A stretch of DNA of 56,718 nucleotides, filler included, from Sluysia triapertura (taxonomy: Eukaryota), in NCBI GenBank assembly GCA_046118255.1. It is 4 parts of 4 records of this genome, joined end to end, with 100 filler letters (N's around TTAATTAATTAA, not from the genome) between each part and the next. Parts side by side here need not be neighbours in the genome. Positions count along the whole stretch, not along the records: positions 11,179 to 25,594 come from JBJNIA010260512.1; 3 more parts are not named here. One strand, written 5' to 3'. The notes under the pieces were generated by a model. That model made no database searches, was not told where the DNA came from, and saw nothing but the letters and a program-made list of their open reading frames with translations. The position numbers and the translations under genes are program-made. This document shows, piece by piece, positions 7,966 through 55,875 of the stretch. Position 1 is the first letter of the stretch; every line of letters begins with the position of its first letter.

Positions 7966-8023
<58 letters not shown>
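7966..8023. repeat. (ATT)n microsatellite
   Basis: Directly visible; explains the poly-Ile of ORF 7752..8147. Confidence 0.95.
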
Positions 8024-8026
<3 letters not shown>

Positions 8027-8550
8027 TATTTTGTATTTCAGTACAGATATGATTTCTCATTAGAAAATTCCGTTCTTCAAGACTAATTTCATTACAAATT
8101 CGATCAGTGTTTTGTAAAAACGATATTGATATATAATGCATTATCATTTGATTGATTGAAATATTTTATTAGGCACTCGGATTATGTAAATATAATTTGG
8201 AATTGGTACAAATTTCATAATTAAATTTTAAGAACATTTTTTAATAGAAAAATGGATCTAAAATAATTTGTTAAAATAAAATTTAATTTTTTACAATTCA
8301 TTGCACTTTGTAAAAATAATTTAGTAGTAGCTGCTAATCTAAGGTTACAGATACGTTAAAGTTTATATAAATATTTTAAAAAATTGTACGAAAGACATCT
8401 TTTGTACAGGATGAGTAATAAATAATGCCGCATTTTTATTTTTTGAAACTTAATATAATTAAGAAACTTGATCTTAATTGATAATTAAATTTACTTTAGT
8501 ATACTATTTATTATTATTATTATTCAGTGATGAAACAAAGAGTGTGCATC

Positions 8551-9350
8551 TCAATATTGTACATCTATTAATATATAAAATATATTTATATGGTGATAGC
8601 TTTTAGTAATTCTAATATTTTTTGTACGTTTATTAACTTTGAAATGAAGTACATTAATTTTACAACAGCAAATAAAAGAAGAAATCACCACCGAAATTAA
8701 ACAATTGAAAATTGCGTGGATGTACTTAATCAAGAATATATTTTGATATTCAATTATTGATTAAGTATTATTGTGTATGTCATTTATTTAAAGTACTTTA
8801 TTTTGACAATGTTTATTAAGATTTGATGTTATGTAAGCCACATTCATATTTAAGCGAAAATTTTTGCATTTCAAATTTCATAATTTGTAATGTGTTTGAT
8901 AGTAATTTGATTAAATTTTTGATGATGAAATTTTTTGAATTAGCATAAAGTTTAGATAAGAGTTATAGTTTTTATAAATGATGTTTGATACATATTTCAC
9001 TAAAAATTACGGTTTGTTTTATGGTTTTAAATTTATTGCAATTTTGGTTATACGTACTGAATAAACTGTACTTTAAGGTGAATAACGAAATAGTAATAAA
9101 TCGATAAATCTTTATGAAAGTTGAAGACCTATTGTCATTTATGGAAAATACGGATACTTCCATTTGCATTGGATTGTGCGATTACGTTTAATAATTGTAG
9201 GATGACTGAGTTATTCATAAATGGCTGGTATTTATCGTCTTGTTTAAAGCTAGCTTTAAACCATTCAATTATAATGTGTTTGTAACAAACCAAGGTGTAT
9301 AAAGATCAAGTTCCATTGTAATCATGTACTGTTGCGTCTTTGAAAATTAT
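8551..9350 (-). pseudogene. Decayed orphan membrane/env-like ORF, copy B
   Basis: C-terminal IFNCLISVVISSFI-CCCK then basic tail. Internal LLNVIAQSNANGSIRIF resembles LFSNVIHANGNSRIF at about 14560. Confidence 0.4.
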
Positions 9351-9611
9351 TAATTACGATAAATTAATATCAATTTAATTAACATAATTAAAATCTCAAT
9401 AATTTAAGTACTCACTATATCAAGTATGAACTGTGAATAATTTTCTTATTTTAATAATAATTATTCACCTCCAGAATTAAGTTTTTAAATCAAATTAATA
9501 ACAACTCAATAATATAATGAATACAAAGATCTATACAAATTACTATTGTAAGTCTTCACTGAACAATAATAAAAATAACCAAAATTACAGAATTAACAAT
9601 AACGTTTAGAA

Positions 9612-9768
9612 TGTCGAGATATAGGCCTAAGGTGCCGCTTGGTATTGTTGACTATTCTAATCTAAAAATTGTTAGATAAGAGCTGAAAGCTCAGTGGAGG
9701 AGCACCGAACTGCGCAGCGAGAGGTCCCGGGTCCGATCCCTGATTAGTCCATTTTATGAAGACTAACA
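9612..9768 (+). mobile_element. Short LTR (TGTCG...TAACA) containing a tRNA-like sequence
   Basis: 157 bp, TG...CA ends, homologous at both ends and in the tRNA-like part to 33662-33805, followed after 2 nt by a PBS. Confidence 0.7.
9680..9751 (+). pseudogene. tRNA-derived sequence (Ala-like T arm) within LTR; not a functional tRNA
   Basis: GAGCTGA-AAGCTCAGTGG (A box)...AGGTCCCGGGTCCGATCCC (B-box-like)...TTAGTCC-A. D stem GCTC/GAGC intact, anticodon stem unpaired. Confidence 0.7.
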
Positions 9769-9770
9769 TT

Positions 9771-9784
9771 TGGTGAGCCCGACG
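9771..9784 (+). promoter_or_regulatory. Primer-binding site, tRNA-Trp type
   Basis: TGGTGAGCCCGACG vs canonical Trp PBS TGGTGACCCCGACG (13/14), 2 nt after the LTR-terminal CA. Confidence 0.75.
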
Positions 9785-11078
9785 ATATATTAAAGTACAT
9801 TTTTTAATTTACTTAATTTAAATTTGTTTAATCTGATAACTCAATAGAAATGTTTTCTCCTGATATAATGATATTGTATTTAGTGTATAATATTGAGTTT
9901 TATTAGTATTTTTAATGATGAAGTATTGCGAAATATGTCAACGTAGGTAGCATAAAAATTAGTTATTTTTATAAGTTAAATGTGATGCTTATAAAGTTAC
10001 TAATTCAAATATGTTATTGTACTTGACGTGCTACGTAAGGTTGACGCGCCAAAGGTTCTTATGAAAAATAAGTATATTATTTCATTAATTTTATTCTAAA
10101 ATTAAGTTAACTAATTTTATTGTTAACAATACAATAATGATATAAAATTTTAATTTAATCCCATTATCTTTCGATAATTAAAAAGATAATGAAATTGAAC
10201 ACTAACTCATATTGCTGTCGAAATTTAATCAGTAAAATTGGTCGGCTTATCACCGACTTAAAAAGAATAGACAGCTTTAATTTCTGTCTTGTTCAATTTC
10301 TAATTTTTCCATTTTCTAAATCATCATAAAGTTGCTTTATAAGCGGTCGTATTTTTTTCAAAAATTTAGACATAGACAAGAGTTAGAATCAAGGCAAGAA
10401 AATAAAACTAAAACTCTCTATTTGTACGGACGCTGCTTCAAGTCATCAGTGGATAAAGGTGAAATTGAAACTATGTCTTTGACAATCAGTTAAAATAAAA
10501 CATTTTTCTAAAAATAGGAACAAAGGTTAGTAACGTGTTTGGTATTAATTATATTTTGTATTAATATGGGCATCAAAATTTATCTTAGATAAGTTGTGTC
10601 ACCCTTAATAGTGATTTGTTGTAAAATTCATAATTTGAAGACGATTTGTTATTAGAGAATAATTTGTATTGCTATATGTATTATTATTTGTATTGCTGTT
10701 TGTATTATTATAAAGAATATTTGTTGTAATCTTGTAATAATATTGGAGAATACATCGATATTTTGAATTTATTTAGTTATTTAGTTTTAATTTGATAATT
10801 TAAAAATAAAAGTATTAAAAAGAGAACAATCCCTTACAGACTGTGTTAATTTTATTTGGAGGACCTCCAACTGTTACTTAATAAATGCTTCTATTAACAT
10901 ACTTTTTATGAAGATATCTTGAAACTGACATTCATAATAGACAAAATTAAGACTTATTAGTGCCAGCAAACCATCTTCTCATCATTACGTTAATTAACGA
11001 AACAGTTCATCAAAATTCTCAACATTGTGCTACTTCTCATTCAAACACAGAAAACAATTCTAAGGCACAACATATATA

Positions 11079-11178
11079 NNNNNNNNNNNNNNNNNNNNNN
11101 NNNNNNNNNNNNNNNNNNNNNNTTAATTAATTAANNNNNNNNNNNNNNNNNNNNNNNNNNNNNNNNNNNNNNNNNNNN
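11079..11178. other. Assembly gap with artificial six-frame-stop linker
   Basis: 44 N + TTAATTAATTAA + 44 N. Confidence 0.95.
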
Positions 11179-11435
11179 TTTAATGATAATAATAATATGC
11201 AATTTTATAAATTTAAGTCTGATTTTGACTCAAGATGTGTAATCGTGAGTGTTTATAAATGTAGATGAGTTTGAGTGGATTTTAAGACCGTTTTAATTAA
11301 TCGGGTCTGCAACTTATAATAAAAAGCTTACTAAATCGAGCACGAAGATTCCAAAAATGATGATCAGCAAATTGAGCAATTGTAACCAATCCCAAATCAA
11401 TTCCAATTGACTTGACTGTTTTTCAGTAATTGAAC

Positions 11436-11575
11436 GCTTCAACAAAATTAACAATCGAATGACCCAAACGTCCCACAAAAATTAACAATCGAATAATCCA
11501 ATAATGCTTCAACAAAATTAACAATTGAATGATCCAAAACGTCCCACAGAGTTAACAATTGAATGATCCAGTAAC
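11436..11575. repeat. Tandem repeat of about 35-bp alternating A/B monomers (70-bp dimer x2)
   Basis: Units start gcttcaac / gtcccac and share TTAACAATYGAATRAYCCA. Confidence 0.85.
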
Positions 11576-11823
11576 TGATAATTGCACAAAGCTCCAAATA
11601 GATTTTTTACTGTTGATTTTAAAGATTATGTCTTAGTTTAATGATCCTTACCTTTATATATTTTTTTTGCTTATTAATTATTGTCTAATGACATCATATA
11701 AATAAATAATTTATAAACAGACAATTTTCTGAAATAATAAATAAACAGTTTTTTGAACATAAATAATAAGTTTCCAAAGATTTGTAATAATAAGATGAGA
11801 ATTTAAACATAAATAATAAATTT

Positions 11824-11984
11824 CCGTTATAATTAAAATGATTTCGAATGTTTATATAAATATTAAATCGTTGATATCCGTTATAATTAAAATGATTTCG
11901 AATGTTTACATAAATATTAAATCGTTGATATCCGTTATTATTAAAATGATTTCAAATGTTTACATAAATATTAAATCGTTGATA
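11824..11984. repeat. 54-bp tandem repeat x3, plus degenerate upstream copies
   Basis: ccgttataattaaaatgatttcgaatgtttayataaatattaaatcgttgatat at 11824, 11878 and 11932. Confidence 0.9.
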
Positions 11985-12368
11985 AACTTTTTATTATTTA
12001 ATTTTAGAATTATTATTTACAAAGATTATCATGTTTTTTATTATTATTATTTTGCCATAAAACTTTTTTAAAATATTATTATTTACAACTTAACGTAATT
12101 TATCTTTCTAAATTATTTACAAAATCTTTATACCTAAATTATTTACATTATTATGATTATCATATTTATTATTAATTATCCCTCTAGTATTTTTGTACTA
12201 TTAATCTATTAATATTAAAACGCACAAAGGTCTAAATCTAAACTAGTGTATTCAGGTGAATGACCTCATTCGTTAAAAAAACAATATTATTGCCTCCTTT
12301 AATTCCACAAACAAAATTCGCCGTCCTTAATAAACGTATAACAATGAGCGCAGGGCCATCATAAATTT

Positions 12369-13050
12369 ATGGGACAAAATAAAAGTCAGAAGAATAACAA
12401 TGATAAACCAAACAATTGGCCTGCAGGTTCGAACATGGTGAAGCAAAGGCTTACCTATGCTCAAGCCTGCAATAACGGCACTTATAAGAAAATCTGCGGA
12501 CAAACAGAGTCCATGACTAATGAAATACCACTACAACAGAATTCAATCAGAATAAAAATTAAATGCCAGACCTGTGGTTCCAATATAAATACCACGAGAG
12601 ATCCGAAGAGGAATATCACTATCTTAGACAATATTACAAAACATAAACAAGCTTGGTTCGTCTATAACTCGAAACCATTTATGTCAAATCGTAGTTTCCA
12701 ACAACGTGGAATTACCAATGGAGCTACGATCAAATTTCAACACAAACTATTAGGCGGAAACGATGACCCACCAAGTACCAAGAATGAAAAGACTGAAACA
12801 AACGCTGAAACACCTCTCTCTCCAGTCAATTTCTTCTTTGACAGTAATGTCACCAGAATACCCTGATAGTATTACTCGAAGCATATTTGAAATCGCAAAA
12901 TGTAAGTAATGCAACACTGAAATTTTCTATAGCCGTGCCATCGTTGTCCCTGGACTTAGTGGTCGCTATAAGCCCTAAAATGTCAACATATTTGTGAGCA
13001 CTCAATCCATTCGACGAATTGAAGGACGTCTTAACGACACATTTTAGTCA
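12369..13050 (+). mobile_element. Ty3/gypsy-like gag relic with N-terminal leader and ubiquitin-like domain
   Basis: 165-aa ORF (MGQNKS...; Ubl at 12546-12758 ending KLLGG). After two frameshifts it continues as MSPEYPDS / LLEAYLKSQNVSNATLKFSIAVPSL...NPFDELKDVLTTHFS, resembling the DUF7041-type gypsy Gag N-terminus (FWPEDPELWF..LEAQF...I.SD.TKF..VV.SL...NPYD.LK..LI.RFS). Confidence 0.6.
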
Positions 13051-14029
13051 TAATAGCAGTGAACTTTCCCATTAATACTTCCATTAATATCACTTTTAAT
13101 TTCCGGACAAACCATAAATAATTTTGTCTGATTTAGCAGTAATGTTGTTATTATTATGCCTCTTAGGCAATTAATTTATATTATTATGTTATTTTATAAT
13201 TGCAGATACTGGTTCCAGCTTGATTCTGCATAAGGTATTTGATTTTAATTGATTTAACAAATATTGACTTGTAGTAAATTGTGTTATCATTTTACATAAA
13301 TAAAATTTCTATATTTTGGATCTCAGTATTTTATCTATTATTTTATATAGACATTATATAACAAATGTGGAAGTAAATATCGTACTTTTTGATAAATAAT
13401 AAATATTTACGTTTTGTTTTGTATATATGAACAGGATGCGATTAAAAATGTTCTTTGTATGATACTAATTCATGTAAATTATCAAAAACTTTATTAATTT
13501 CAATTTCAGCTGTTTCCTGATAAGTATAAATAACACTTTCCTGATTTTCAACATAAATTCAATACGTGATCTACTTGATTTTTCAGTGCATAAAAATCGT
13601 GATTTATTTTTGCTGAGTCTACTTTTTCTTCAAAAATAAGACCTTTGGTAAGATATTTTGATTTTCGAGTTCCGTTAAATAAATATGACAATATTCTCTG
13701 ACATTCACAACAAAATTCTTTCGTACCTTTACTGGCGTGACAGAGCACTTGATTTCAGTTTTGGTTTATTATCTTAACAAGTGATTAATACAGAGGTGAA
13801 TTGTTCATTTAACAACAAATATCCAGTTTTAAGTAAATTAACAAAATCGATTTTATATTGTTCGTCGTATTAATGATTTGTTTGGTGATTAATTTCGGTC
13901 ATTTTATTTTTAAGATTTTAATTCATCAGCTCACAATGTTTTAACTACTTCATCTGCTTCTGTGTATTATATTTAAAACACGCATTTGTGTATGTGATTA
14001 TGTCATGTATGTGTGGAGTTCACTATATT

Positions 14030-15184
14030 ATGCATTCATTATTTTTATTTACATTAATTTTATTTTTTCGAATGAATCAATCTAACATCAGCATTAGTAA
14101 AAATTACGTTCCAGTTATAAGTCAGAATCATATTTTTTTAATCATATTATTACGAGGATATGCTCTGATTACAGTCACAAACAATTTTATTGATGAGAAT
14201 ATGCAAGATATAATTTTATTATTAAACGGAGTACAATCGACTACTTTTGAAAATCAGGTACGCAGAAATACTTCATGCGGAAAAACTACTTCAATATAAA
14301 AAATACTGCTGAACTGAAAAAAAATTCCGAAGTTATGTGGTTAGAGGATTCTCATTTAGAATTAGAAGAGTTTCATAATCCTGTTAATAGGTACGACAGT
14401 TCATGCAGTAATTTACATAACTCTTTGTATGTCGATTTCGATTGTTTTACGGTGAACAATGGATTAGACGACGTTCAAATTTACTCTACCTATAATTTAA
14501 TTCAATGTATTTTAATTGTGGGTATGGAGTAGCAAGTGAAATAAGTTGTTCACTGGACTTATTCAGTAACGTCATCCATGCTAATGGCAATAGTAGAATT
14601 TTTATCTCTTCCGGGATTATTTGCTCCTTCGTTCGGTTTTCATCAACTTCATTTAATAAAAACTAATCAAGAAAATCTTTTGATTAAAAAACGAAAAAAT
14701 TAACTAAAATGAAAATGTTTGTTTTTGGAAATTCAGAAAAAACGATATTGCAACAGCCGAATTATCCTCAAATTTGTATCAAAATACAACAAAATAGTAT
14801 CACTGAGAATGGTTCTGATTGTATGACTCTAAAGGTGCCTAATTTAACTTCTGGTCGATTTCTTCTGTTTGTAAACTGTATCTGTGGTAAAAAAGGTGTC
14901 GATATGCATGGAGAATGTGAAATAATTAATAATATTATGAATAAAACATGTTCCGCAGTATTTATAAATTCTATGTACAATCCATTAATTCATCTTTGTT
15001 AACCATCAACTGCTCTATTTTGCACCGTAATATCGTCTATACTACTTCACTTAAAACAAATATTATTCATGTAACGACTTTGTTAAAAGATGCAAGTACA
15101 AACGACAACACTAAAGATAAAATCAATAATTATACTTTAGATGCACTCGAGAAATTCAACTTATTAAATTTATTCTTTTCATAA
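14030..15184 (+). pseudogene. Decayed Cys-containing orphan/env-like ORF, copy C
   Basis: Signal-peptide-like MHSLFLFTLILFF followed by four successive same-strand ORF fragments, beta-rich with several Cys and NxS/T sequons. Confidence 0.4.
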
Positions 15185-18100
15185 ATTCTTTTCTGATGTA
15201 TACATCATACATACATCATTAACTGACTATTGCAAAACAATCAAAATCTTCGGACGATACCGATTTAAAACCTTTATCACAACTACAATGTCTTACGTTG
15301 CGACTAAATATAGTTCAACTACACAATGCAAAAACCTCGCAAACACTAAGTTTTCTCACTAAATCTCCAAGATTTGAAATATAGATTTTTTAATATTTGC
15401 TTACTGTTTTATTTTTATTATTATTATCGACTTATAGTAAATTGATAATAATTACTATTATTATTAATTAAAAATATGATGAATCAATAATGATGATATA
15501 GACAATGATAGTCTTAGAAATGTGTAAAAAGCCAAATCTTAATAAAGATGTAGATCGTAATGAAAACATATTTCCTCATATAATCATCAATTTAAGTTTT
15601 AATACAAGTTTCTCTAACTTATATTTACATCTAATATTCCATATGTAATATGTTAATGCTACATTTTTTTATTACATATCAGATTCGGAATTGTTCTTAC
15701 ACAAAGATTCATTCTAAATATTTCTAGTGTATCAAATTGTTCTATGATACGCACTTCTGTGTTAACATTTTTAAAATTAATTAAATAATTTCTTTCGTTA
15801 TCTCTTAATGTAAAAAGCAAGACTTCTATTTTTCTATAAATAATATATTACCAATTATTAATTATTACTTATTATTAATTTTATTTATTTATATATTTAA
15901 ATTTATGATTTTAATTTTCAATTATTAATTTCAGTAATACTTTTCTATTGTTAATTTAATTTTCATTATTAAAATTAAATTTTATTTTTAATATAACTTT
16001 ATTTTTATTTAATTTTAGATAGAGACCTGACAGTTGAATTTATATGTAAGTCGTTTTGATGCAACAACAGAACCTGAATAGATTTTAACCAAATATTTTA
16101 TATACTATAACTCTTAAGAACCCTAACAATATTCTATGATCAAATGTACGAAATTACATCTGCCCTATTTGTAATACACAACTACTATCAAATTTAGCCG
16201 AATATTTCTTTATAAATACAAGATGGAAAACGCGATATATTCCCAAAGACTACGTGCTTGAAAACAAACGAAAACACTAATTTGTTAATTTTTTCGAAAC
16301 ATTTCAAAAAAAATACTAAATAAAATTATTAAATAAACCATTACTACTAGCTTTGTGATTGAGATGACAAATTATAGCCTCAAAACTATTTTTGTTGAAT
16401 TCTAATAAAACAAAATTAATGCCTATTCAAAGTAATAATCAGGATTGTGCTGTTTTAAATATTTCCTTTCTGAATTCTTAAATATTATAAATGCAATGTT
16501 GCGAAGGAAATAAGAACTAAAGCTTGAATATCTTATAAAAAAAATTCCGATGTTTAATTTAATAAAACACAAATAAATTATTTTGCGAAATTAATTTTCT
16601 ATTCATTTGTTTAATTTAAAAATATATTTATATTTGTAAATATACATTTGATGGAAAACCTTTTAAAAACAAATAAAATTTTATGAAATTTTATTACTAT
16701 TTTAAACTATTTTTATATATTTTTATACCCAAAATAAATGCAGATTAAGTATGTTGAAATCTGATTATTGGATGTGATGCATTAAATTTAAATTTTCTGA
16801 GTAACTGACAGAGCAAGTAATTATTTAAATCAAAGTCGTTCAAAATTGGCTAATTAATGGTTTATTAAAGCTATCATTACTAGTGGAATATTTTTGTTGA
16901 TCTGCACCATTGTCAAGTACATTATCTCTTTCTTGAAGTTTCAAAAATATTTCACGATAATAGTTTAATTCCTAAATATAAATAAATATTAAGTTATACT
17001 TGGATAATCAAAAAGACGAATTATTGAACTTGGAACTTATTATATAAGTTAAATTGTTGTATTGTCAGGTGTGCTTGTGTGTGTTGCATTTTTGAAAGTT
17101 TTATTTGATAAATAAATTGATGTCCACTGATTTCTCTTTCAACTTCATTAACAATCATTATTAAAACTAAATTATTTCGATCTTAAAAAATTAAAAGTGT
17201 AACATAAAAGTACATTCACTTAAAATTTAATATATTAATAACTTAAAATTGAAGTTGGTATCAATAGAAATTTATATTAAACTAAGTTTAAAAATTTTAC
17301 AGTGTAAAAGTCGCAAGATCAACTATTAGATATTTTGTAAATGTGTAGACAATTTAATTTGTCGTCGCAATAACTTTTAATTAGAAGTACGAGTCTCGAA
17401 GCATTAAATTTATATAACTTGGAAATCAATCGACTACTAAAAGGATTTAAAAATTCAGTATGGCCACTAAATGAAACATTAATAATAGAAAATAGTCTAC
17501 TCATAATTGAAAACAAAACATAATAAAGTTTAAAAATAATATATATTGTATTTTTTGTTTAAAAAACGTGCATCAAATATCAAACTGTGAGAGTGTAATT
17601 TATACAAATTTTAATAAAATGAAATATTCGAGTAATCTTATTAGCTTTAAAAGAAACAGAAAAAGTTCTGGAGTTAAGAAAGAAAATAACAAAGACGAAC
17701 TTAATTTAAGAAATAAAATTTAAAAAAATGGAATTTGTGAATATCATGATTCTGGTTAAACAGAAGCATCATAAGAATGAAAAACAAACGTTTTTAATAA
17801 AATGTAAATGAAAAGTAAACAAATACCAACTAACTCATAATCACTAAATGAATGTACATGACAAAATAAAATTTTAATATGACCAACCAATATATTTTAT
17901 AATATAATAAAACGTATAATATATCATATATGTAAAGTTACTTTTTAGTTTATATGTTAATTTACTTCTCTTCTATAACAGCATCAAGAAAAATATATTA
18001 TCGACAAAAATGCAACCTGTGTTAATTATAATTGATTGCTTTTATTGAGAAATAAAAAAATTAAATTATTGTTTTTAGACAATTTTATTATTTATTTAAT

Positions 18101-19632
18101 GTTTAACTATTATTTTTATTATAATAAGTAAAATATTTATATTTAATACTAAATGGAATACCTAAAAACATTAAAAACATTTAAAATTTAATAAATTATT
18201 TAATATTAAAAAATTTTGTTTTAAAAATTCAAAATATAAACAGTTTTGTTTATATAAAGAAATATCCAAAATGGTTGTGTAAATTTCTTATAAATAGGGA
18301 AATTTAAGCGAAGAAAATTCAAGTAATAAAAATTTGTTGGAAAAATTCAAGCAGCTTTGTAATTAATCCATGAATTTAAGTTTATTTTTATAAGTTTAAA
18401 GTCCTTATCGTAAAAGGAAGGACCTAAAATCCACTTAATATTATTTTTTAATTTTGATGCTAGGTCGTATAAGGCTAGCTCAACATTCACCTAAAATTAT
18501 ATAAATATCAGATCCGTCTGAATATTATTAAAATATTATTATTATACTTGTATAAATTTGAATATTGTCAGTTAATATACATTAAGATTTTATTCTTTTT
18601 CGTATAAAAAATCATTGTTTTCCTTAGACGTAAAAAGGCTAGCTTAACTTTTAAAAACATAAGCATTTTGTTAGACTGTAAAAAGCTAACTTAAAATACA
18701 AATTTAATATATTTATCATAAATACTACGTGATCGATTTCGAAAGCTACGTGACTGTTCTTAAACTTAAAATATAACGTGATTAAATTTAAAATCCTAAT
18801 AGAACGACTTCGTTCAGATTTAAGTCGTATAAATTGGGCGATCTTATCTCCAGAATCTTTTTGCAAGCACAAGTTAAATCTTTTTAAGTAAACACTTGCA
18901 CTTTCAAGAGATTCAAAAACATAAAAACAAATATCCAATGTTTTAAAATTATATAAAATAATAAAGATAATTGATATAAAATGTGTGACAATGAAGTAAA
19001 ACTCTATATTGTTTTCATTTTTTTAAATGATTTTATATCTAGCTTAAGCTAGATTCAAATAAATTAGATTTTTAGTAAAACAATAAAATAAACCGTTTAA
19101 AGTTTTTATAACTAAAAAGTTTTATTACAATTTTATAAAACACAAATTATATTATTACAAATACAAAAATGGGTGTATTCTGATAACTATCTTGATTAAA
19201 TGCAACATATTTTGTATCAATAAGGCAAATAAAATTAATACCAATAAAAATTTAAGATTATGAAAAGCAGTACGGGAAAAATATATTTTAGTATAAATTA
19301 GGCTTTTCTAATCCTAAATATTTAATATATAACTTTTTGTTTGTCATATTTGTATAAGATCGTATAAGTTAAAAAGTTAGGGAATAGTGGCAAATTTTGT
19401 GTTCATAACAGATGAATTAATTTTATTATTCATGCATTAACTTTGTATTATTATAATTATAAAAATTCAAATAACTTTTCGAAGTTCCTCAATATTTTTC
19501 ATTAATCGCTGATTCTGTTGCATAACTTCACTTAATTTTGTTAGATTAGAATCTTTCATTGATTCCAGATTCGAATTGGATATTGAAGCAACCTATTATT
19601 ATGTAACAATAAATTATAATAATAATTTGTTA

Positions 19633-20251
19633 TAGGGTGTTTCAATATGTTACGTAAATTTTGCATGAATAACGTAAACCTTGCAATCAATTAAGTAATA
19701 TAAGTATTTGAAAAATAAAAATATTTAATTAGTTTAAAAAATGAAAATCAAAAATATAAATTTAGTTTTTATTCTAGGATTATTTCTTTGTTTACGGCTT
19801 TATTCAAATGTGAAAGCATTTTCCTATAAAAAGCACGATAATATTCTGAAATTATTTCTCTAAGTTTATCAGAAATTAATATTTTCAATTCATTTTCATT
19901 TTTTGTCACCTCAGATAACTAAATTTTTTAAAACCGAAAAACATTTTCTATTGGATTTAAAAAAGGATAATAGGTGGTAAGTATTTCATCTTTTAATCAT
20001 CGATAATAATGAATTCTGGTATTATCCATTATAAAAATAGGATCATGTACATTTTTTAACGTACGTACTGATTTTATTACTTTAATAGTTGTTTTATCAA
20101 ATATTTTATAATAAATGACGAATTTTTAAAGTAATTCAATGTTTTTATTTTTCAAATATTTATATTACTTAATTTATTGCAAGGTTTATGTAATTGATTG
20201 AAAGGTTTGTGTTATTCATGAAAAATTTACGTAACAGATCGAAAAACCCTA
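19633..20251 (-). mobile_element. Internally deleted IS630-Tc1 (DDE_3) transposon with long TIRs
   Basis: About 105-125 bp imperfect TIRs starting TAGGGT(G/T)TTTC. Minus-strand remnant PIFIMDNTRIH...YLPP / YPFLNPIENVF. Confidence 0.85.
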
Positions 20252-22063
20252 AATATGAAATAATATATGAAATAATAAAAATATTAAAATTTGCAAATTT
20301 AATGCGATCACAAATTTTGCATTACATGCGGTTACAAGTTGTGTTATAAAATAAATAATGAATCTTTATTATTAACAAAACTGAGCTTTTCATTGGAATT
20401 TTAACATTATTTTAAAATTTATTAATCAAAATTACGCGAAATTTTTCGAAAGATTAAATTGAATGATTAAAACACTGCATTTCAAACATATCTATCAGCT
20501 AGCAAAAATAAAAAAATTTTGTTTAATTTTAAATCAATATAATTTTGAAATAATTATATTATTAGGGGTAATATTTGAAGTAATTTGAATAAAACTAGAA
20601 TTTCACATAATTTCTGTGTAATATAAATATTAAAAAATACTCAAATAGCAAAGAAACAAAGTAAACATTATAATTTATTATAATTCTTAAAATAAATATT
20701 TAATAATATAAACAATAGTTTAAAATAAATTACTCAATAAATTTGATAAATCTATGAAAAACTTGCAAATTTGAAAATGAGAAATAAATATTTCAACAAT
20801 ACACTTAAAAGAAACAGAAATACGGAATAATGAAGCTTACCATACTTAATTAACCAGAACAAGAACACCTGACATGCAAAAAAGTGGACTTATAACAAAG
20901 CTATAATATAGAATTAAATTAAGTGGGTGTAAATACAACATTTACAGTGGTCAAAACCCAACATTACCTATTCATACAATAATGTACTTTTAAATTCTAG
21001 AATTTTCGATCAATCTTCATTGGTTGATAACAAGTATAGACATACTAGTATGAATCGAATTTCAATTCAGAATTTAATTTATCAGAAAATTTATTAATCA
21101 CTAGTTGGTTCTCATTACTAATTCTTAATGACGCTGTATTGTGGTTTATATAGCCAACGATTTAATTCAGTGCTATTCGATTTTAATTCTTAGGCAGTAA
21201 AAATTTAGTACATACCATATATTACTAAACATTTGTAGTTAACCGTACTTAGTTTTTTGAATTAATATAATGTAGTTAATTTTGGTGATTTTTTTGATTT
21301 ACGTTAAAATCTTGTAATTGAATGCTAGACCATAAAAGCTAGCTTAATTTAGTTATTAAATTTATTAATAAGACATTTATTGTAGGCGTGTACTGCACCG
21401 CTATTTACACAAAATAGGATTAAGTTAAACAATCCTTAAGTAATAAATCATAGGATTACTAAAATTTTGATTATGAGAGTCTTCCACTTTACTACTTAAG
21501 TTAAATCCTAACAACATCTTTTGCTTGCAAATATAAACAGTTTCGTGTTAGGCGAACTGACTTCCAGGTATTTTTTCGTAGCAAAACTACTTGCACAATG
21601 GTCAAAGCATATATAATCAATTACAATTTTATGCTGAAATCAATTCACTCACAATCATTAAATTTTATGTAACTATTCAATACAGAGAAAAGGGTAATGC
21701 TATTAAGCTCTATAAAGTAAGAAGGTTTTTACTGCTGTACAGAATTTTAAACAGTTCAAAATACAAAACTTTTCAAATTCTAAAATAGTCATTAGATCTA
21801 AATTAATATGATAATGTAAGTTTTATATAAGTAAATCTAGTTTTTCTCAAGCTTCTGCATTCTTTCTTCCACGGTAGATTCTTTTCTCTTAATCGCCTTT
21901 CCAAAATTTAACTGTGCTGACGTGAAGTTATCGTTAAAATTGTGTTCAGTGATAAACAATATCTTAAGAAAAATCTAAAGACCACGAAAAATGAAGGTGT
22001 TTGTAAAGTATAATATACTACAGCTTACATTGCAAACTTTGTAGCAAATAAATTAAATATATA

Positions 22064-22471
22064 ATGAAATTTGTTCACATTGTTGGTCCCATTGTTGGCA
22101 AAACTACAATATCTAACAAAGCATCACAATTGCGTGGTAGAATATTCATTGATGCAGATGATTCAGAAAATAATTTTAACAAAATTAAAAATAATAAATC
22201 ATTGAGCGATGAAGATAGATTACTATAGTTAAGAAGAATCAGAAATTTCATAAAAATTTAGAAAATAAATATATTAAAAATGCAATATAGGGAAATAATA
22301 TATCTTCTTTTTGTGTATTTAAAAGTACCATATGATATTTTATATCATTTTTTGCCAGAAAGTTTAATTAAATCTCAAATTTCAGAATGTCAATATAATG
22401 CAAATCATGAAAATTGCACGCATATTAGTAAGACCAAAGATAATGAGATTTTAAAAGAGAATAAGACCTAA
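22064..22471 (+). pseudogene. IDNK: Gluconokinase (IDNK/GntK-like) pseudogene
   Basis: Single frame: MKFVHIVGPIVGKTTI...FIDADD..ENNFNKIKNNKSLSDEDRLL*L...LKMQYREII.LLFVYLKVPYDIL.HFLPESLIKSQ. Two TAG stops, shortened P-loop, ACSAL motif missing. Confidence 0.75.
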
Positions 22472-23907
22472 AAATGAACAAATTAATAAAGTTATACGCA
22501 AGAAATTTAAAAAGAAATTAAAGTTAAGAATATCAATACAATAATTTAAAATACTGTCGCGATACAAATATTATCAAAAACAATGTCTTAAATTAGTATT
22601 ACTGAGTCATACTCTTACCATATTCAAGAACAGGTTTTATCTTCAGAATATTCAAGAAATAACCGATGATTTTATATATTTTCGATAATTTTTAAGTCAT
22701 TGTACCTTAAAGCTGAATGAATAGTAGCTTCTACATAATCATCAATAGTGTATGAACGTGCAAATATCGTGTAATAATATTTAATATTCTTTTAAATTGT
22801 TTTATAAGTATGTAAATATTGTAAAATCAATTATAAATAACTTTTAATTTTCTTTTAAATTGTTTTATAAAATTAATTTTAATGTAAATAAATCTTTATT
22901 TTAAATTCAATTATTGTAAAACATTATTGTAAAAGCAGTTTAAAAACAAAATTTTAAAACTTCATTGAAATAATAATAAAAGTAGTAATAAAATTAGTTT
23001 TTCTAAGCAATAAAATTTTTAATCTATATAATAAAAATTGGTAATAAAATTTTGATTGAAAAAAAAATTTTATTATTTTTATGAAATTTTTGTACAATTC
23101 AAAAATCCCTTTTGCATGTCGTTACTTTCGATGTTACGCATTCAGAAATTTTTTCTTACCAAATACTAACAAGCGCATTTAAAATAAAAATGAACATTAT
23201 AAGAAAAGGCTCTATACTATATTATGATCTGGTCATGTTAGTAATATTCTTACTAATAAATCATTAATAAATAAATCTGAATCTAATTGCTTTAATATCT
23301 CAAATTATTAGTAGAATATTCATTGAATTAGTAGAATATTTCGAGATTCGATAACTCATATGTCGGATAAGTCACAGACAGTATCAATGTTTAGAGAGCT
23401 ATCCTCATTAACTATAAACTTAGATTGCTTTTCAACTATTGTTCTATTAAGAGATTTTTTAAAACCCTCAAGAAAAATTAATGTAAATTGAAATGATCTT
23501 TAAGGTCAAAAAATATTATCTAAGTTAATAATTTTAGAACTGAGATTTTAGTCATGCCTACAAATCGGAAGTTGCACGATTATGCTTGCAGATAAATCCG
23601 GCAATAAAAATAACAAATATTTCGCTTGCTTATTTTGTAATAGAAAATTATCAAAAGTAACTATTAACAAAACAACATATTTTAAAATAAGTTAATTGGT
23701 TTAGCTATAAGTAGAAAAAGAATTTCGTGGAGATGTCTATTATATTGATTAAATAAACAATATTGTAAACCTAAATATTAAATTAGTTCATTTTAATTGA
23801 AAATTTAAGTGTGTATTAATTTTTTCTGAAGTAATCTTTATTTAGAATATTTAATTTGCAGCGAAAAATCTACATACGGAGTAGAATAAATCATTGAAAA
23901 TATTTAA

Positions 23908-24090
23908 CATTAAACATACCATAACCGGTCATCAGATTTATTATAATATAATTTTTTTAATGTAAATTTGTTTGTTTATATATAAAATTAAGTCATATTA
24001 TAAAATGGTTAAAAAAGCAATACAATTTCAAAGTATTTTTTAAAGTAAAAACTGAAAACGGTCATTTGACCGGTTGTGGTACCTTTAGTG
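23908..24090. mobile_element. piggyBac-type MITE, 183 bp
   Basis: TTAA on both sides; 24-bp TIRs CATTAAACATACCATAACCGGTCA / CACTAAAGGTACCACAACCGGTCA (20/24). Confidence 0.85.
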
Positions 24091-25145
24091 TTAAACTTTT
24101 ACAATAAAAATATGAACTTAGAATCAAATAACCTTATGACCAAAATCAGTTTCAGTTTTAACGTCATGTAATGATCTAGAACGAGAAAAATGAATTTCGC
24201 TTTCAATTTGATATGCATCAAAATCGGTTTAATTAATTTGTTTCAAACTTAAATTCAAATTAGGTGATCTATAAGGAACTCGGGACACACGAACTGGAAC
24301 ATGGAATTGTTTTTTAAATTTTTTTAATTTTCGATGATTCTACCGATTTAAATTTGTTCATAAGTTCTTCAATATTAAATTTACTCAAATTTTTAGATCG
24401 TAACAATCTGACACAAAAAAACCAATTCATTGTAAGTAAATAAGCCATTTCTACTGCTGGTAAGTTTATTCAAAACTGAATACAAATGTTGAGGTAAACC
24501 AGGTATTCCATGAGGCAATTCAATTTTTATTTGTTCTAAGCTAGCAAAACCACTACTATTTATTTCATAAACATTAAATAATTTGCGTAATTGGGATGCA
24601 AATTCCAGAGATAAATTAGATATTTGTTTTACATTAAAATTCTGCATGTTTATAATTTATAGATCATTTTTATTTGATAATATTTTATGTGATGAGTTCC
24701 CTACAGTGTCCAAAAGAAAAAAACCAGAGGTGAAGCAACAAAAATTAAAATTTGACAAATAATAATATTTATATGCTTTCAAGTAATTATATTTCAACTC
24801 AAATAACCAAAAACTATAAGATAAATTGGGCAGGGAGTCTCCAAAAAAATTTATTAATAGCTGTATTGAAAAATAGAATATTTAAAATTTCTTAAGATAA
24901 ATTGTATAGGGAGTCTCCCAAAAAATTAAATGAATAACAAAATTATGTCGATATTTTCAAAATTAAAACAAAATCTCCCCAAAATTATTCAATTATAAGA
25001 AAAACTAATAATAATAATAACAAAAAATTTACCAAAATTATTGATCTTCACAACATTTGACCGTTAGCTGACTGTGTGCTTGTGTCGTAAAATTTTATTT
25101 TATATTCTATCATTATCCAATAAATCCGGAGTTTCACAATAAAAC

Positions 25146-25490
25146 ACACACAAATCATCAAAACCTCTTTGATAATTAGACCAACAATAACAATTTCGAC
25201 AATTTCATGGTACGATTTGTCAAACTTCATTAAGTACAAAACACGAAAATTGATTTATTATCAACTATCTACTCTACTCAATCTATTTTTACGTAAATTA
25301 CTTCTTAATTAAAATAGCATTCAACAATATTGTTAACATACATAAAAATAATGAATTTAATTTCACTTTTCAGAATTTAATTGATTTTCGATTTTCAGAC
25401 CCAATTTTATAATGAAAAGTGTTTAAGCTTCTTATTCTCAAAAAACCACTCTATAAAAAACATTTCAAAATCACTTCTAAATTCTCCTCT
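25146..25490 (+). repeat. Dispersed repeat homologous to 5543-5830
   Basis: Colinear shared blocks acacaaatcatca..attagaccaac..catggtac..ttgtca and aatt.aatt.attttc.att...caatttt...tgtttaa...aaacatttcaa. Confidence 0.75.
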
Positions 25491-25594
25491 TCCATAGCAG
25501 TCATCATTCTAAGTATTAAAAATTCAACATTGCATAATTAAGAATTAATTAAAATTTGACTTTGCTCAATATTAAGGCTTTCCTTGCATGAACT

Positions 25595-25694
25595 NNNNNN
25601 NNNNNNNNNNNNNNNNNNNNNNNNNNNNNNNNNNNNNNTTAATTAATTAANNNNNNNNNNNNNNNNNNNNNNNNNNNNNNNNNNNNNNNNNNNN
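25595..25694. other. Assembly gap with artificial linker
   Basis: 44 N + TTAATTAATTAA + 44 N. Confidence 0.95.
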
Positions 25695-25979
25695 AACCAC
25701 AAATAACATTGTATATACTCATAGCCGTTGCTACTTCACAGCCTTCTATTCACCTTACGTATCTTTTATTCTATTTTATTATTTGTATATGTAAGAAATT
25801 AGTAAGATACGAAAGAACAGATCATGTAATAAGACAAAAATAAGGATTTTTATGCGTTTCTTTTTAATAACAATAATAACAACAGTATTATTACTGTTGT
25901 TACTATTGTTATTATTATCTCTTTTTATCATTATCATTTTATTATTAAATCATGTGAATAAGATTTAGTCACTTTTATT

Positions 25980-27450
25980 TGGTTACCGCCATCATCAGTA
26001 ATACTTACTTTGATTAAAAACGTCCAGACTTTGACAGTACTGATGATGGCAGGTATATTCTATCTACATCAATTTATACACCCAATCAGAATGATCATCA
26101 ATAATTACAATTTCAAAACTCTGATTGGGCAAACAACTTAGAGCTTAATTTAGAATCAAAATTACAAGCAACACCAGACACAACAACATTGCACAAAATT
26201 TCATTTTCATTGGCCATTATAATTACTAGCATTTCCTTCATACAATCCGAGCTAAAAATAGTTTCGTACATTTGATTGGAGCAGGGAATAGAAGAGAGCA
26301 AAGTCAGTATTGGCTACTAAAAAATTATTATCATAGTAATAAACAACTAACCTCATAAGTTGGATAAAGTACAATTTCACAATACTACGGATTTACTCAC
26401 AATTACGTTCATAGATCAATCAATAAAATTTTTTTGGTATTATTATAACTTTTATTTGGAAAAATATTCATAACAACTAAAAAAACAATCAACAAGAATA
26501 TTGGCAACAAAATTTCACAAAGTTTTTATACTTTTATCTATATCAAATATGAACTATCTGAGTGATGTTGTTCAAAGCAATTCCATATCAGCTTATGGTA
26601 ATTTGAAGTCATATATTAGGAATAAATTCAATACATCTAAAACTGACGCTCTTTTGCAGCATGTTAAGCAGTTGACAATTTCTAACGTAAAAGAAAATTG
26701 GATATATGTTTCTAACCAGTTTATTGTACATAACTCGTTAAAGATAAATGCTTCAATTTCATCATCGGATGTACAATTAAAATCAAGTTATCTGTTCAAT
26801 AACAAAAATTTAAGTCAATATAAAGTCAATATTAAATTTAAGGATATGACCAATATATGCAGTGTTATATATATTTATTATGACCCTATTCCTGATGATC
26901 CTAGTCAGTCGACTGATTTAGAAGAAGAAAACTTAGTACCTTTAGATATCAATGATGCAATAATGAAAAGTTCAAGAACCATTCATGTGCTACAATATAT
27001 TAAGAATGAATTTAAATTTTCTAGTTCTGTAATTTCGAATAATGATGATATAATGCTGAAGGCACTTTTGGATGGTACATTTCGTGTAGATCAGGTTCCT
27101 GACGCGATTAGTTTGAATATTGGTGAACTTACTCAGGTAACGTGCTACAGATTCGCCTCGAATTTGATGAAGGCACTTTGGGATGGTAAGTTTCTTGTAG
27201 CCATATCCGACAAATCTCAAGATACTACAAGTAATACTTCGACATTAAATTTTATTTATTATTTTACTTATAACGATTATTTCTATATTATTTATTATAG
27301 TGTTAACTATTTGTTCAAGTACGAAAATGGAATCTGGGATGAAGGAAGACTGAATCTTACATATTTTTAGATAACTTACAAAACTCAATAAATTATAATC
27401 CTCTATGTGTTTATGTCTTCTATTTTTATGATGCAAAGCTAAAAAAACTG
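25980..27450 (+). pseudogene. Orphan membrane/env-like ORF, copy D (289-aa open segment 26501-27370)
   Basis: Long intronless ORF with broken 5' extension (STDDG...TTTLH). Distal hydrophobic MCLCLLFL*CKAKK in another frame. Confidence 0.45.
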
Positions 27451-28339
27451 TAATAAATTTAAAATAATTTCATTTTATAAAATTAAAACCATAAACGAAT
27501 TATTTATGAATGTAGGTCACATATCAGAAGCAATTATGGAGCGTAATTTTAATTACTTTGTCATCAAAATAATGTATAAACGGACGATTATGTTCCATGA
27601 AATTTCAAAATTGTCGATCCAGTTCAGTCTAAAATTAAAATATTTGAATTATTAAAATTTGATAACAATATAAATAAATATAAGTCTTTGAAATATAAGT
27701 TTCACGAATATTACTATATCTTATACAAATTAACGCCCTCAAAATCTTTCATAACCTTAAAACATTATTCAATCTACAACAATAAATCATTAATAACAAC
27801 ATTACCCTCCATACTTCACTCTTCTTAATAGGTCTTTAATCCACGATCTTCCAATATTCAAATGTCGTTCTCAATCAAGAACTTAAATCACCATTTAAGA
27901 ATCCATTCTAACATTCTCCATTTCATTAAACGACATACGTCTACTATCATACCTTTAATCGTTAATTACACATATAAATTCACTTAAACCAATCTCTCTT
28001 CAGATATTTAAGTTTTAAATATATTCAAATTCATTGCAATATGTGTAGAAATCAAAAGGATTCAAAGGAAGATCGTGTACAGTTTTAAAGAATTCAGTAA
28101 TTTATGTAATTTAATAACCAGAATAATTTTTACACTGTTTCTTTGTCGTTATTATTACAGCATTTAATTCGAGAATCTTTTATTTAAAATATGTCAAGAA
28201 TCAAAGAAAGAAACAGAAAGTTTATGTTCGTTAAGGTACAAGAAATTTATGTATTTTTTAATTATTTTCAAATAAAATAACATTAACAATAACAAAATTA
28301 TGTATTATTAATGTTACAAAAATTTATAACTTAATTTAG

Positions 28340-29900
28340 TATCTACCATCACCAGTATTGACACTACTCACTACAGAAAATACATTTGTGTCAATACTGA
28401 TGATGGCTAATCATTCAGCATAACCACACTATCAAATCACTCTGTCAATTTTCCAAATTTGCTCACATATTACTGGCCATCCAACCAGAATGATATTTGA
28501 TACTTTGCAAACAAACATTCCTGGTTGGATGTTGGTGTGTACCGATCATCTGGCCCACAAAAATTAATGCTAAGAAAATAAAAATCATAATTTTTAACAA
28601 AAGTAGAGAGAAAGTAAAACTTTAATAATTCCAACTCAATACCAATTGATATGTTTTATTTACGACTTCGAAACATTTAGTTTAGTTGCAAAAGTGATAA
28701 CGTGACAATTAAAAATGATGGATCTAACTTGTATAGTCTACTAGAAATCAGCCAGTATTTTAGTGATACCTTATTTATTGGATCTTACAATGAAACATTT
28801 TGGTTTAATGATTTAAATAGCGTGTGCACCATCGTAAAACTGTTACTGCTACTAATATTTTATTAGAAAATCAATGTTCGAAAGATTATAAATCAATATT
28901 GATATCGAAGTACCATGTGGATAAGAATCATAATGATTCACTCACTAGAAATCATAACCAAATTCAGAAGCAGAGTTTAGATCGTTTATATTTAGTACTC
29001 CAATTCCAATTATATTACGGCCGTTACTCTTTCCGGAATGTTATGATTTTATAAATACATTAGAACGTATTTCTTCATGTGAATATCTAATAAAATCTAA
29101 TTACAATAATCGATTTAGTGTTATGAACTTACAATTATATCTATTGAGTTATTTTATGAATTTAATGTATGATCTAGTTAAAAAGCGTAATAAGTATACC
29201 TCACTTAAACATAATGAAAAAGGAATTCTATTTGTTCAGTCAATTCCACATCAATGGCTTCTTATGTTTGATCCGTCGCATTACTATCAATCATTTGCAC
29301 ATGTTGAAATTAATTTAGTCAATACAGGGATAGTTCCAACATCAAAACCGAAATTAAAAATTATCAAATTAATTCAAAATAACGGTGAATTTAGAGGCCA
29401 TGAACTTTTTAATCTCAATAACCACCATCCAAAAACATTTTTATGTGCAGAATGTGAATTATCAGAATATATACTCATCATCCGACTTTATAAATGTCTG
29501 GAGCAATTTACGAGTTTCTGCGATGTTAAACAGTTAAAAAGACTTGCTCATACATGTTCAGCAAACAACGATTTTAAATGTCACGGTAGACTAAGTGATA
29601 CCACGATAGAATACAAGATTAATGTTAAAACAACAATTGAGTCTCTGGAATTTAAAAAGGCATTAAAAAGTATGTAATTGGTCAAGTAATAAAATTCATT
29701 TGTAATAATCAGAGTTCCAAAAATGTAAATTCTTATTTTATTCAAAATTATTATAAATTATATGATTATTTTATTTCAGATGATCATTCTAAGACAACAT
29801 GATGACTCCAGAATATAGTGATGAAAATATTAGTTTATAAATTTAGATTAAATAAAAATTTCATAATTGTCTTTGCATTCATTATTTATTTGAATAAGTC
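28340..29900 (+). pseudogene. Orphan membrane/env-like ORF, copy E (184-aa open segment 29123-29677)
   Basis: 5' end NTDDG...ITTLSN parallels copy D and shares its hairpin. Cys-containing distal segment; hydrophobic FIIVFAFIIYL near 29860-29890. Confidence 0.4.
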
Positions 29901-30199
29901 ATCTAATAATTTCAAACATTTCGAATTAAATGAATACAATATTGATGGTAAGAAAAAATGTCCGAATTTAAATCTCAAATTATTTAAAATAAGCATATTT
30001 TCATTAAATTAGTTTCACTTTAAAAGAATAATTTTACTAAGTTCAAAAACAACTCCACTAAAAGAATTATACATTGTAACATTATTAACTTAACAAATTT
30101 TCAGTATTCCTATACAAAAAATTTAACCTTCATTATAAAAATGATAATCATAATAAAACGCTGTAAAAGAAATTTCCTTATTCAATACCACACTTTTAA

Positions 30200-44141: not shown

Positions 44142-44241
44142 NNNNNNNNNNNNNNNNNNNNNNNNNNNNNNNNNNNNNNNNNNNNTTAATTAATTAANNN
44201 NNNNNNNNNNNNNNNNNNNNNNNNNNNNNNNNNNNNNNNNN
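44142..44241. other. Assembly gap with artificial linker
   Basis: 44 N + TTAATTAATTAA + 44 N. Confidence 0.95.
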
Positions 44242-54898: not shown

Positions 54899-55875
54899 TC
54901 AGTTTGATAAAGCGTTTGAACTATTTCTGGAGCGATTTGAGTTTAATTTTGTACTTGACCAAGTACAAGCTTCGCCTTTTAATAATACTCTGTATCCTTG
55001 TAGCAAACACGGCCATATATGGTGGTTTACAAATGAACCCATATAATCTGAGTCATAACTTCTTCGATATTTATGCTGATCAAACATTTCGCCATCTGCA
55101 GTTTCTAATAAACTCAATCCATTCACTGTACCTCCAAAATTCCAAAACAATTGTATACATCGATCCATAAATCCATCTAAATCTTTAAAATTGAATCCAT
55201 TTAATAATTTATAATTGTAATATCGCTGACGTTTGCATTTTCTGTGTAACATTATATAAACGAGTTCCGCTTTTAAGTTTTTTAAATGACTTTTTGGTAT
55301 TACTTGTCGATATTCAAAATTACTATTGTGACTAAAAAACATGTTATGCATATATTGACCATTAACACCTTTGTATGCTTTAGATAAGGTTCGTTGAAGA
55401 TCCGATACAAGTTTTGCTGCTGTCATAACTAAAGCAAATATAATTCTTTGATTATTTTCATGATCATAAGCGTACTGTTTCAGTACATTCATAGCTTGTA
55501 TTGGTGATACACTGAACAAATCATTATATCGAACAACTAAACCTTGTAAATAAGTATCATTACAGATTTCTTCGATATCACTACCTCCACAAAAATCACC
55601 ATGGTTACTATTTTCTTCTACTCTAGTCATTTCTGGTGTATCTACCGATTTTGTCAAACCAGATACACTTCTACTGCTATTATTGTATTGCAAATTTTTT
55701 TATATCCGAAAAGTTCGGTAATGAATTCGAACGACATCCACTTAATAGTTTTTTCTTTTTTCGTCTTTGTTTTGGTGATGTTCGATTATTTCTTTCAGGA
55801 CTAGTTTCTTTGGATAATTCAATAACAGCTTCTTCTAATTCATTAAGACGTTGAGCTAAGTCGCTATTAAATGAT
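54899..55875 (-). CDS. SPATA18: Mitochondria-eating protein (Mieap/SPATA18), terminal exon with apparent 1-nt frameshift at 55695-55701
   Basis: [41 protein letters not shown] matches Mieap [23 protein letters not shown]...MKGEAVT. Acceptor at 55876-55877 with a coiled-coil-like upstream frame. Confidence 0.85.

Follow-up and report, generated by a model that had tools for sequence, protein, structure and literature searches.

A probable ubiquitin-like domain ahead of a decayed DUF7041-type Gag in a multi-copy Ty3/gypsy family of Sluysia triapertura

The locus, its open reading frame and the leader

The window, meaning the whole stretch of DNA analysed (56,718 nucleotides, filler included), was taken from Sluysia triapertura. 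Its GC content per kb is 20-33% throughout, as in AT-rich eukaryotic DNA. Exon-like Pfam matches elsewhere in the window belong to the prefoldin, kelch, ABC transporter and MIEAP families, and include a MIEAP-domain ORF on the minus strand (54899-55699, E 3.6e-24). Two open frames on the plus strand, 26474-27370 (298 codons) and 28958-29677 (239 codons), gave no convincing Pfam match. The gaps at 11079-11178, 25595-25694 and 44142-44241 each consist of 44 N, a 12-base stop-codon linker and a further 44 N, and order and distance across them are uncertain.

The main features of the locus are given in Table 1. The ORF that begins with MGQNKS ends within the region where the Gag domain starts, and its LLGG sequence corresponds to aa 127-130 (12747-12758). 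Its extent, length, start and di-glycine, all described in the initial annotation, were confirmed by translation, and the chance of 165 open codons at the local composition is approximately 1e-5. Three word-indexed protein searches returned no relatives of the ORF, and a search of 1.84 billion proteins gave two matches, both of which are tandem-repeat artefacts. Neither the ORF nor the Gag remnant had a related locus among viral and metagenome contigs. Three matches to a degenerate pattern for the end of the ubiquitin-like (Ubl) domain were set aside as unrelated phage methyltransferase-like genes.

Table 1. Features of the element and of nearby sequence in the window
Feature	Position	Strand	Remarks
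tRNA-Trp-type primer binding site (PBS) look-alike	9771..9784	+	follows ...AACA-TT; 1 mismatch; 0/100 shuffles; sole one in window
165-aa ORF	12369..12866	+	leader, then probable Ubl domain, then polar linker
MGQNKS	12369..12386	+	fits MGxxxS/T myristoylation pattern; sole in-frame ATG before aa 23
Leader hairpin (aa ~17-37)	12419..12480	+	z -3.35 on plus strand, -4.27 on minus strand
Probable Ubl domain (aa 60-130), end K-L-L-G-G	12546..12758	+	short helix; hydrophobic binding patch mostly lost
Polar linker	12759..12834	+	scores as DUF7041-type Gag N-terminus in the ORF's own frame only
Best Gag start motif match	12835..12861	+	frame +1; modest (rank 61 of 112,251 positions)
Decayed DUF7041-type Gag (capsid N-terminal part)	12875..13135	+	frame +2; likeness fades at ~13100-13135
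FIIADTG	13193..13213	+	past KP motif; overlaps splice-acceptor-like site
AT-rich stretch	13274..13414		matches repeat of roughly 3,000-4,500 copies (run depth)

The MGxxxS/T pattern is the N-myristoylation consensus used by retroviral Gag. Only one of the 184 ATG-started ORFs of the window begins with MGxxxS, where approximately 0.004 per start is expected, and by its sequence the leader presents Gly2 and Ser6 as a candidate N-myristoylation site. Just three of the first 20 residues of the ORF are basic, and no MGxxxS/T start was found in the 72 related Gags measured among the metagenome loci listed.

Other copies of the element were examined in contigs of one public sequencing run, possibly the source of the window itself, aligned at 80% likeness. 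Judged by run depth relative to a single locus, the leader hairpin matches a repeat of roughly 4,500 copies, and depth drops to 24 at 12409 and to 40 at 12483 on either side of it. The abundant hairpin-bearing relative either has no Ubl-Gag or is more than 20% different there. All four majority differences of this high-copy repeat within the hairpin fall at third codon positions of the ORF (chance approximately 1 in 81), so the leader is likely translated. Since the second Met is among the codons changed in the repeat, 12369 is the likely start. The majority differences at 12437 and 12455 are partners of one pair in the predicted centroid structure. Constraint on the leader seems to act at two levels, its protein sequence and its RNA or DNA structure, and the conserved hairpin probably serves the RNA of the element as a signal in cis. 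No Rfam family was found for the hairpin, and nothing significant was returned by Rfam in 8000-16000 either.

The hairpin and the AT-rich stretch downstream of Gag have nearly equal run depth (~74,000-78,000, compared to 16.6 at the locus of the window itself). They may both belong to a single abundant, non-autonomous derivative without Ubl-Gag; a joint between the two was absent from the joints listed. Upstream of the ORF, where the sequence is repeated in the run, are two tandem arrays, 11436-11574 and 11823-11984, whose units measure 70/34 nt and 54 nt. On the other side, 13900-15250 is a low-copy repeated region of ~2-6 fold depth, which may represent cargo or a small family of host genes and contains two ORFs (14251-14532 and 14688-15002) that match no Pfam family. 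Farther along the window, a MITE-like element (19633-20251) consists of an inverted repeat pair of ~110-130 nt flanking ~380 nt, and a mariner-type HTH remnant is present at 35825-36136 (E 0.005).

The Gag remnant and the extent of this copy

The Gag remnant was compared with at least 115 metagenome loci carrying the Gag start motif, 79 of which, each with at least 110 open residues, were used to build a Gag profile. When stops were read as X, 12860-13072 matched Pfam DUF7041 with an E value of 0.008 (0.046 in another run), a match that does not reach the curated Pfam cut-off. Our own profile matched 12875-13096 at E 2.4e-5 locally and at E 0.009 over the six frames of the window. Stops interrupt the remnant at 12995, 13073, 13085, 13097 and 13115. 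Because the best start motif lies in frame +1 and the Gag core in frame +2, two frame changes are a fair reading, the one in or just after the linker and the other between ~12862 and 12875; a reading with one frame change only was dropped once the frame +1 start motif had been located. The distance from start motif to core is ~20 nt shorter than in intact relatives. The twice-frameshifted, DUF7041-like Gag that had been proposed from the sequence is thus upheld by both profiles and by the frames of motif and core, and the frame changes and stops mark this gypsy-type copy as dead, as had also been claimed.

The remnant is likely CsRn1-type. Like this element, members of the CsRn1 lineage of Ty3/gypsy (CsRn1, Kabuki, CsRn1_Cv1) have a DUF7041-type Gag, and a tRNA-Trp-type PBS is described as the mark of that lineage (PMC3630058). 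An exact PBS of this type was found 71-454 nt upstream of the Gag motif in 38 of the 115 metagenome loci listed, while viral contigs gave no match to the Gag start motif. This copy differs from the CsRn1 lineage in that it has no CHCC knuckle, pol or paired LTRs. Neither pol motifs, nor a CHCC Gag knuckle, nor a PR-RT-RH-IN order with GPY motif was found near the element, because the copy stops before them and is truncated. No LTR pair was recognised, as comparison of 8000-12400 with 12401-30000 gave no repeats beyond AT-rich noise. An isolated C-x2-C-x4-H-x4-C pattern is present on the plus strand at 17547-17590, 4.4 kb beyond the Gag remnant.

Between the PBS look-alike and the Gag motif downstream of it are 3.1 kb and an assembly gap, and for these reasons the look-alike was not assigned to the element. 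No tRNA-Trp PBS was found nearer to Gag, even with three mismatches allowed, a level at which 11 of 100 shuffles gave a match. The repeat beside the look-alike is short and resembles a tRNA (Rfam tRNA, E 0.78), and it has two diverged copies: that at 9665-9784 ends in ...AACA with the look-alike following, and that at 33662-33805 is bounded by TGTTG...CAACA and has no PBS. The repeat may be a SINE, or else a short LTR whose core derives from a tRNA.

The initial annotation had also suggested a protease relic, FIIADTGSSLI. These letters are present but misplaced: the DTG follows the KP motif after 96 nt, compared to 405-722 nt in 37 of the 38 measurable relatives (the remaining one at 160 nt), and the site overlaps an acceptor-like sequence. 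FIIADTG was accordingly rejected as an in-place protease.

The ubiquitin-like domain and its pairing with Gag

To judge the region aa 60-130, 121 ubiquitin loci from viral contigs, representing 96 distinct sequences, were used as a reference set. The global alignment to these ubiquitins spans 69 columns, of which 25% are identical, and is broken by a gap of 7 residues at the helix; it places Gly129-Gly130 in register with Gly75-Gly76 of ubiquitin at the last strand. Its score was matched by none of 5000 shuffles, and by 7 of 5000 when LLGG was kept fixed. HHalign in global mode was likewise equalled by 0 of 130 shuffles, with or without LLGG fixed, and in local mode by 0 of 130, or 1 of 130 with LLGG fixed; the HHalign probability itself was only 1-6%. 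The ubiquitin alignment had been described as end to end. The likeness and the register of the di-glycine hold, but "end to end" is too strong, since the match is carried by the half from aa 93 on. In the ESM Atlas the top match was a ubiquitin-family cluster (0.90, 151 of 256 features), which the tool grades as a lead, and the ten best named matches all belong to one clan, that of ubiquitin.

Another explanation is that the N-terminal extension is real and family-wide but not derived from ubiquitin, its first half perhaps being a cysteine-containing module, with C-x2-C at aa 66-69. In its favour, the likeness rests on a local match of 38 columns together with LLGG, and the local HMM score against the 96 ubiquitins was equalled by ~5% of shuffles (247 of 4923 scored) and was lower than that of eight unrelated six-frame segments of the window. 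The low HHalign probability points the same way, as does the Atlas value of 0.90, which 4-10% of shuffled proteins also attained. Searches with the ORF gave no ubiquitin-clan match in Pfam and no ubiquitin match by sequence in the PDB, where aa 34-95 had a weak match to YJU2 (E 0.36). Such an origin is nevertheless unlikely in our judgement: the full-length ubiquitin register beats shuffles that retain LLGG, and the Atlas neighbours are all of the ubiquitin clan. From these comparisons aa 60-130 are probably ubiquitin-like.

Modelling did not add to this. A beta-grasp had been expected from AlphaFold and fold searching, but the single-sequence model was an all-beta model of low confidence (pLDDT 59.6) for which two fold searches gave no ubiquitin match. 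When AlphaFold was guided by the ubiquitin alignment, a beta-grasp with a 6-residue helix was obtained (pLDDT 81), having a TM of ~0.8 to ubiquitin, NEDD8 and SUMO; this comparison is circular and indicates compatibility only.

Ubiquitin receptors, those of the ESCRT pathway included, bind the Leu8-Ile44-Val70 patch. Ubiquitin residues Leu8, Arg42, Ile44, Val70, Leu71, Arg72, Leu73 and Arg74 correspond here to Gln, Trp, Val, Gln, His, Lys, Leu and Leu. Recruitment of ESCRT through the Ubl domain, one of two roles initially suggested, is unlikely because the binding patch is mostly lost, and the ORF holds no late-domain motif. The surfaces of ubiquitin that deubiquitinases read (Arg42, Ile44, Val70, Leu71) are changed as well. 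FUBI likewise has Leu at the position of ubiquitin Arg74 (PMC10611586).

Across Ubl and Gag the run depth is ~5-25 times that of the locus in the window. Both parts are present at no fewer than five further loci, with 80-88% identity to the window in each. In five of the best 15 of 29 joints, on separate contigs, a Ubl side reaching 12734-12791 is connected with a Gag side that begins at 12856-12892. The depth of these linking contigs is 16-36, and at least one contig extends 162 letters either side of 12850. In the two readable copies the identities of Ubl and Gag are 83% and 85%, and 88% and 80%; these similar values indicate that the two parts aged together. As Ubl and Gag are found together on other contigs, their pairing is a family trait that predates these copies. 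The proposal that other genome copies share it therefore stands on the five listed joints, against chance insertion beside a Ubl pseudogene. Among copies, the linker between the two parts varies in both sequence and length.

One continuous frame from Ubl to Gag is likely, provided that the domain is ubiquitin-like, because the linker resembles a Gag N-terminus only in the frame of the Ubl domain. Scores for the 20 residues that follow GG are 3.9 in the frame of the ORF and -14.5 and -22.8 in the other two, on a scale where 83 real Gag N-termini, scored in-sample, have 5th and 25th percentiles of -1.3 and 4.1. In the related metagenome Gags, Met lies 2-100 residues before the start motif with a median of 28 (n=72, from the 77 loci with an upstream stop in view), and here GG precedes the motif by 94 nt, or ~31 residues. 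A Gag starting at an ATG right after GG was considered and dropped: three other contigs share a difference at 12799 that is a stop in frame +1, which makes the two frame +1 ATGs after GG unlikely Gag starts.

The leader-Ubl ORF might instead be a separate accessory gene upstream of gag, comparable to the small ORFs of the MDG1 group, in which case Gag would have a start of its own or arise through recoding. Accessory ORFs ahead of gag have been described, of which some show MGxxxS/T (bioRxiv 10.1101/2025.03.14.642691), and the differences in linker length among copies would suit such an arrangement. So would the spacing: relative to the window, Ubl-Gag spacing in the two measurable copies is +24 nt in one and, according to which anchor is taken, -17 or -18 nt in the other, and only -17 gives a single frame, so that three of four spacing measurements retain the broken offset. 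Both copies bear indels of their own (3 gaps in ~620 aligned letters), and no copy with one open frame was seen among the run contigs. Against a separate gene are the Gag-like linker in the Ubl frame only, the loss of alternative starts through the frame +1 stop in three contigs and the lack of a slippery heptamer at the junction; inspection of the ORF by eye revealed no transmembrane stretch like that of sORF2. On balance we consider a separate gene improbable.

Relation to known systems and possible processing by the host

We tentatively favour reading the locus as a dead remnant, lacking pol, of a multi-copy Ty3/gypsy family that has a DUF7041 Gag. The first gene of this family would encode leader, probable Ubl and Gag in one protein, cut by a deubiquitinase after the di-glycine. 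By analogy with FUBI-eS30, which is cut by a host protease of the USP type (PMC8354635; PMC9703124), a host enzyme of that type would cut here. Gag released in this way would have an N-terminal stretch of the usual length, as judged by its ~31 residues to the start motif against the median of 28 in relatives, and it is because of this that the Ubl domain may be regarded as a removable cap, like FUBI on the ribosomal protein eS30, which would set the timing or the amount of assembly-competent Gag.

Ubiquitin inserts act as host-protease cleavage signals in pestivirus polyproteins. The initial annotation had envisaged an ancestral element encoding membrane anchor, Ubl and capsid, with host deubiquitinases as one possible means of processing Gag. 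In a bolder version, a myristoylated leader-Ubl-Gag precursor would be the functional equivalent of a retroviral matrix-capsid, and host deubiquitinases rather than the element's own protease would free the capsid from its membrane anchor; we regard this version as quite doubtful.

It is also conceivable, at a low probability, that the Ubl domain is fused to Gag and never cut, acting as a structural or interaction domain (in solubility, as a decoy for the ubiquitin pathway, or in membrane targeting with a leader that would be myristoylated), and that GG is a relic of a captured host gene. The linker and frame evidence for a fusion applies equally to this case, the residues contacted by deubiquitinases are altered, and a SUMO-like domain is described within the ORF1 polyprotein of planarian Burro (PMC6431247). 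Set against an uncut domain is the position of GG exactly where a normal Gag would begin, together with the GG codons in other copies, which show no majority difference among the 40 best-supported rows of 324 (weak evidence). The largely lost receptor patch and the missing late-domain motif also speak against a domain retained for interaction.

In the 72 DUF7041-type Gags measured, the residues before the motif include neither Ubl nor MGxxxS/T, whereas ~160 residues would precede it here, and none of the 115 metagenome loci listed gave a match below E 2 to the ubiquitin profile or to the ORF. The giant planarian gypsy element Burro/GYPSM1 is reported to carry a ubiquitin-clan domain (Ubi2/SUMO-like, PF11976) in its ORF1 polyprotein (PMC6431247), so a domain of this clan in a gypsy polyprotein is not new. 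That domain, however, is described as lying far downstream of an N-terminal retrotrans_gag, amid MATH, BIR and BCL-2 domains (PMC6431247), whereas the present domain stands ahead of a DUF7041 Gag and has a di-glycine at its end. FUBI-eS30 (FAU) and the ubiquitin-ribosomal protein precursors are described as having an N-terminal Ubl that ends in x-x-L-G-G and is removed by host USPs (PMC8354635; PMC10611586). Those precursors are host genes with the Ubl at the extreme N-terminus; in this mobile element a 59-residue leader comes first and the cut is predicted.

The sORF2 of the MDG1 group also lies upstream of gag, and an MGxxxS/T site is predicted in it (bioRxiv 10.1101/2025.03.14.642691), but it is presented there as a separate transmembrane, fusogen-like protein of 63-107 aa, and the word "ubiquitin" is absent from the main text of that preprint. 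OTU and Ulp1 proteases are reported as ubiquitin-pathway modules of the Ginger, Helitron/Helentron and Mutator elements (PMC2836005); these are DNA transposons, which according to the same source carry the protease and not the substrate domain.

No Ubl ahead of a gypsy Gag was found in the literature, and "ubiquitin" does not occur in PMC5408684 or PMC6238403; Repbase Reports, GyDB, Dfam and most subscription journals lay outside the search and may already note the domain. Within the searchable literature, then, the view that no LTR-retrotransposon family has been described with a leader-Ubl-Gag layout still holds, and it is the placement of a Ubl domain with di-glycine before Gag that seems to be new.

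If the pairing alone is real, it is one more captured domain in the gypsy catalogue. If the fusion and the cut are true, a retrotransposon would leave the opening step in the processing of Gag to the ubiquitin system of its host, at a control point that has no description for LTR elements in searchable papers. The family would then parallel, in nature, the ubiquitin-Gag fusions made by engineering, and would offer a simple case in which to examine how ubiquitin-pathway parts are captured by mobile elements.
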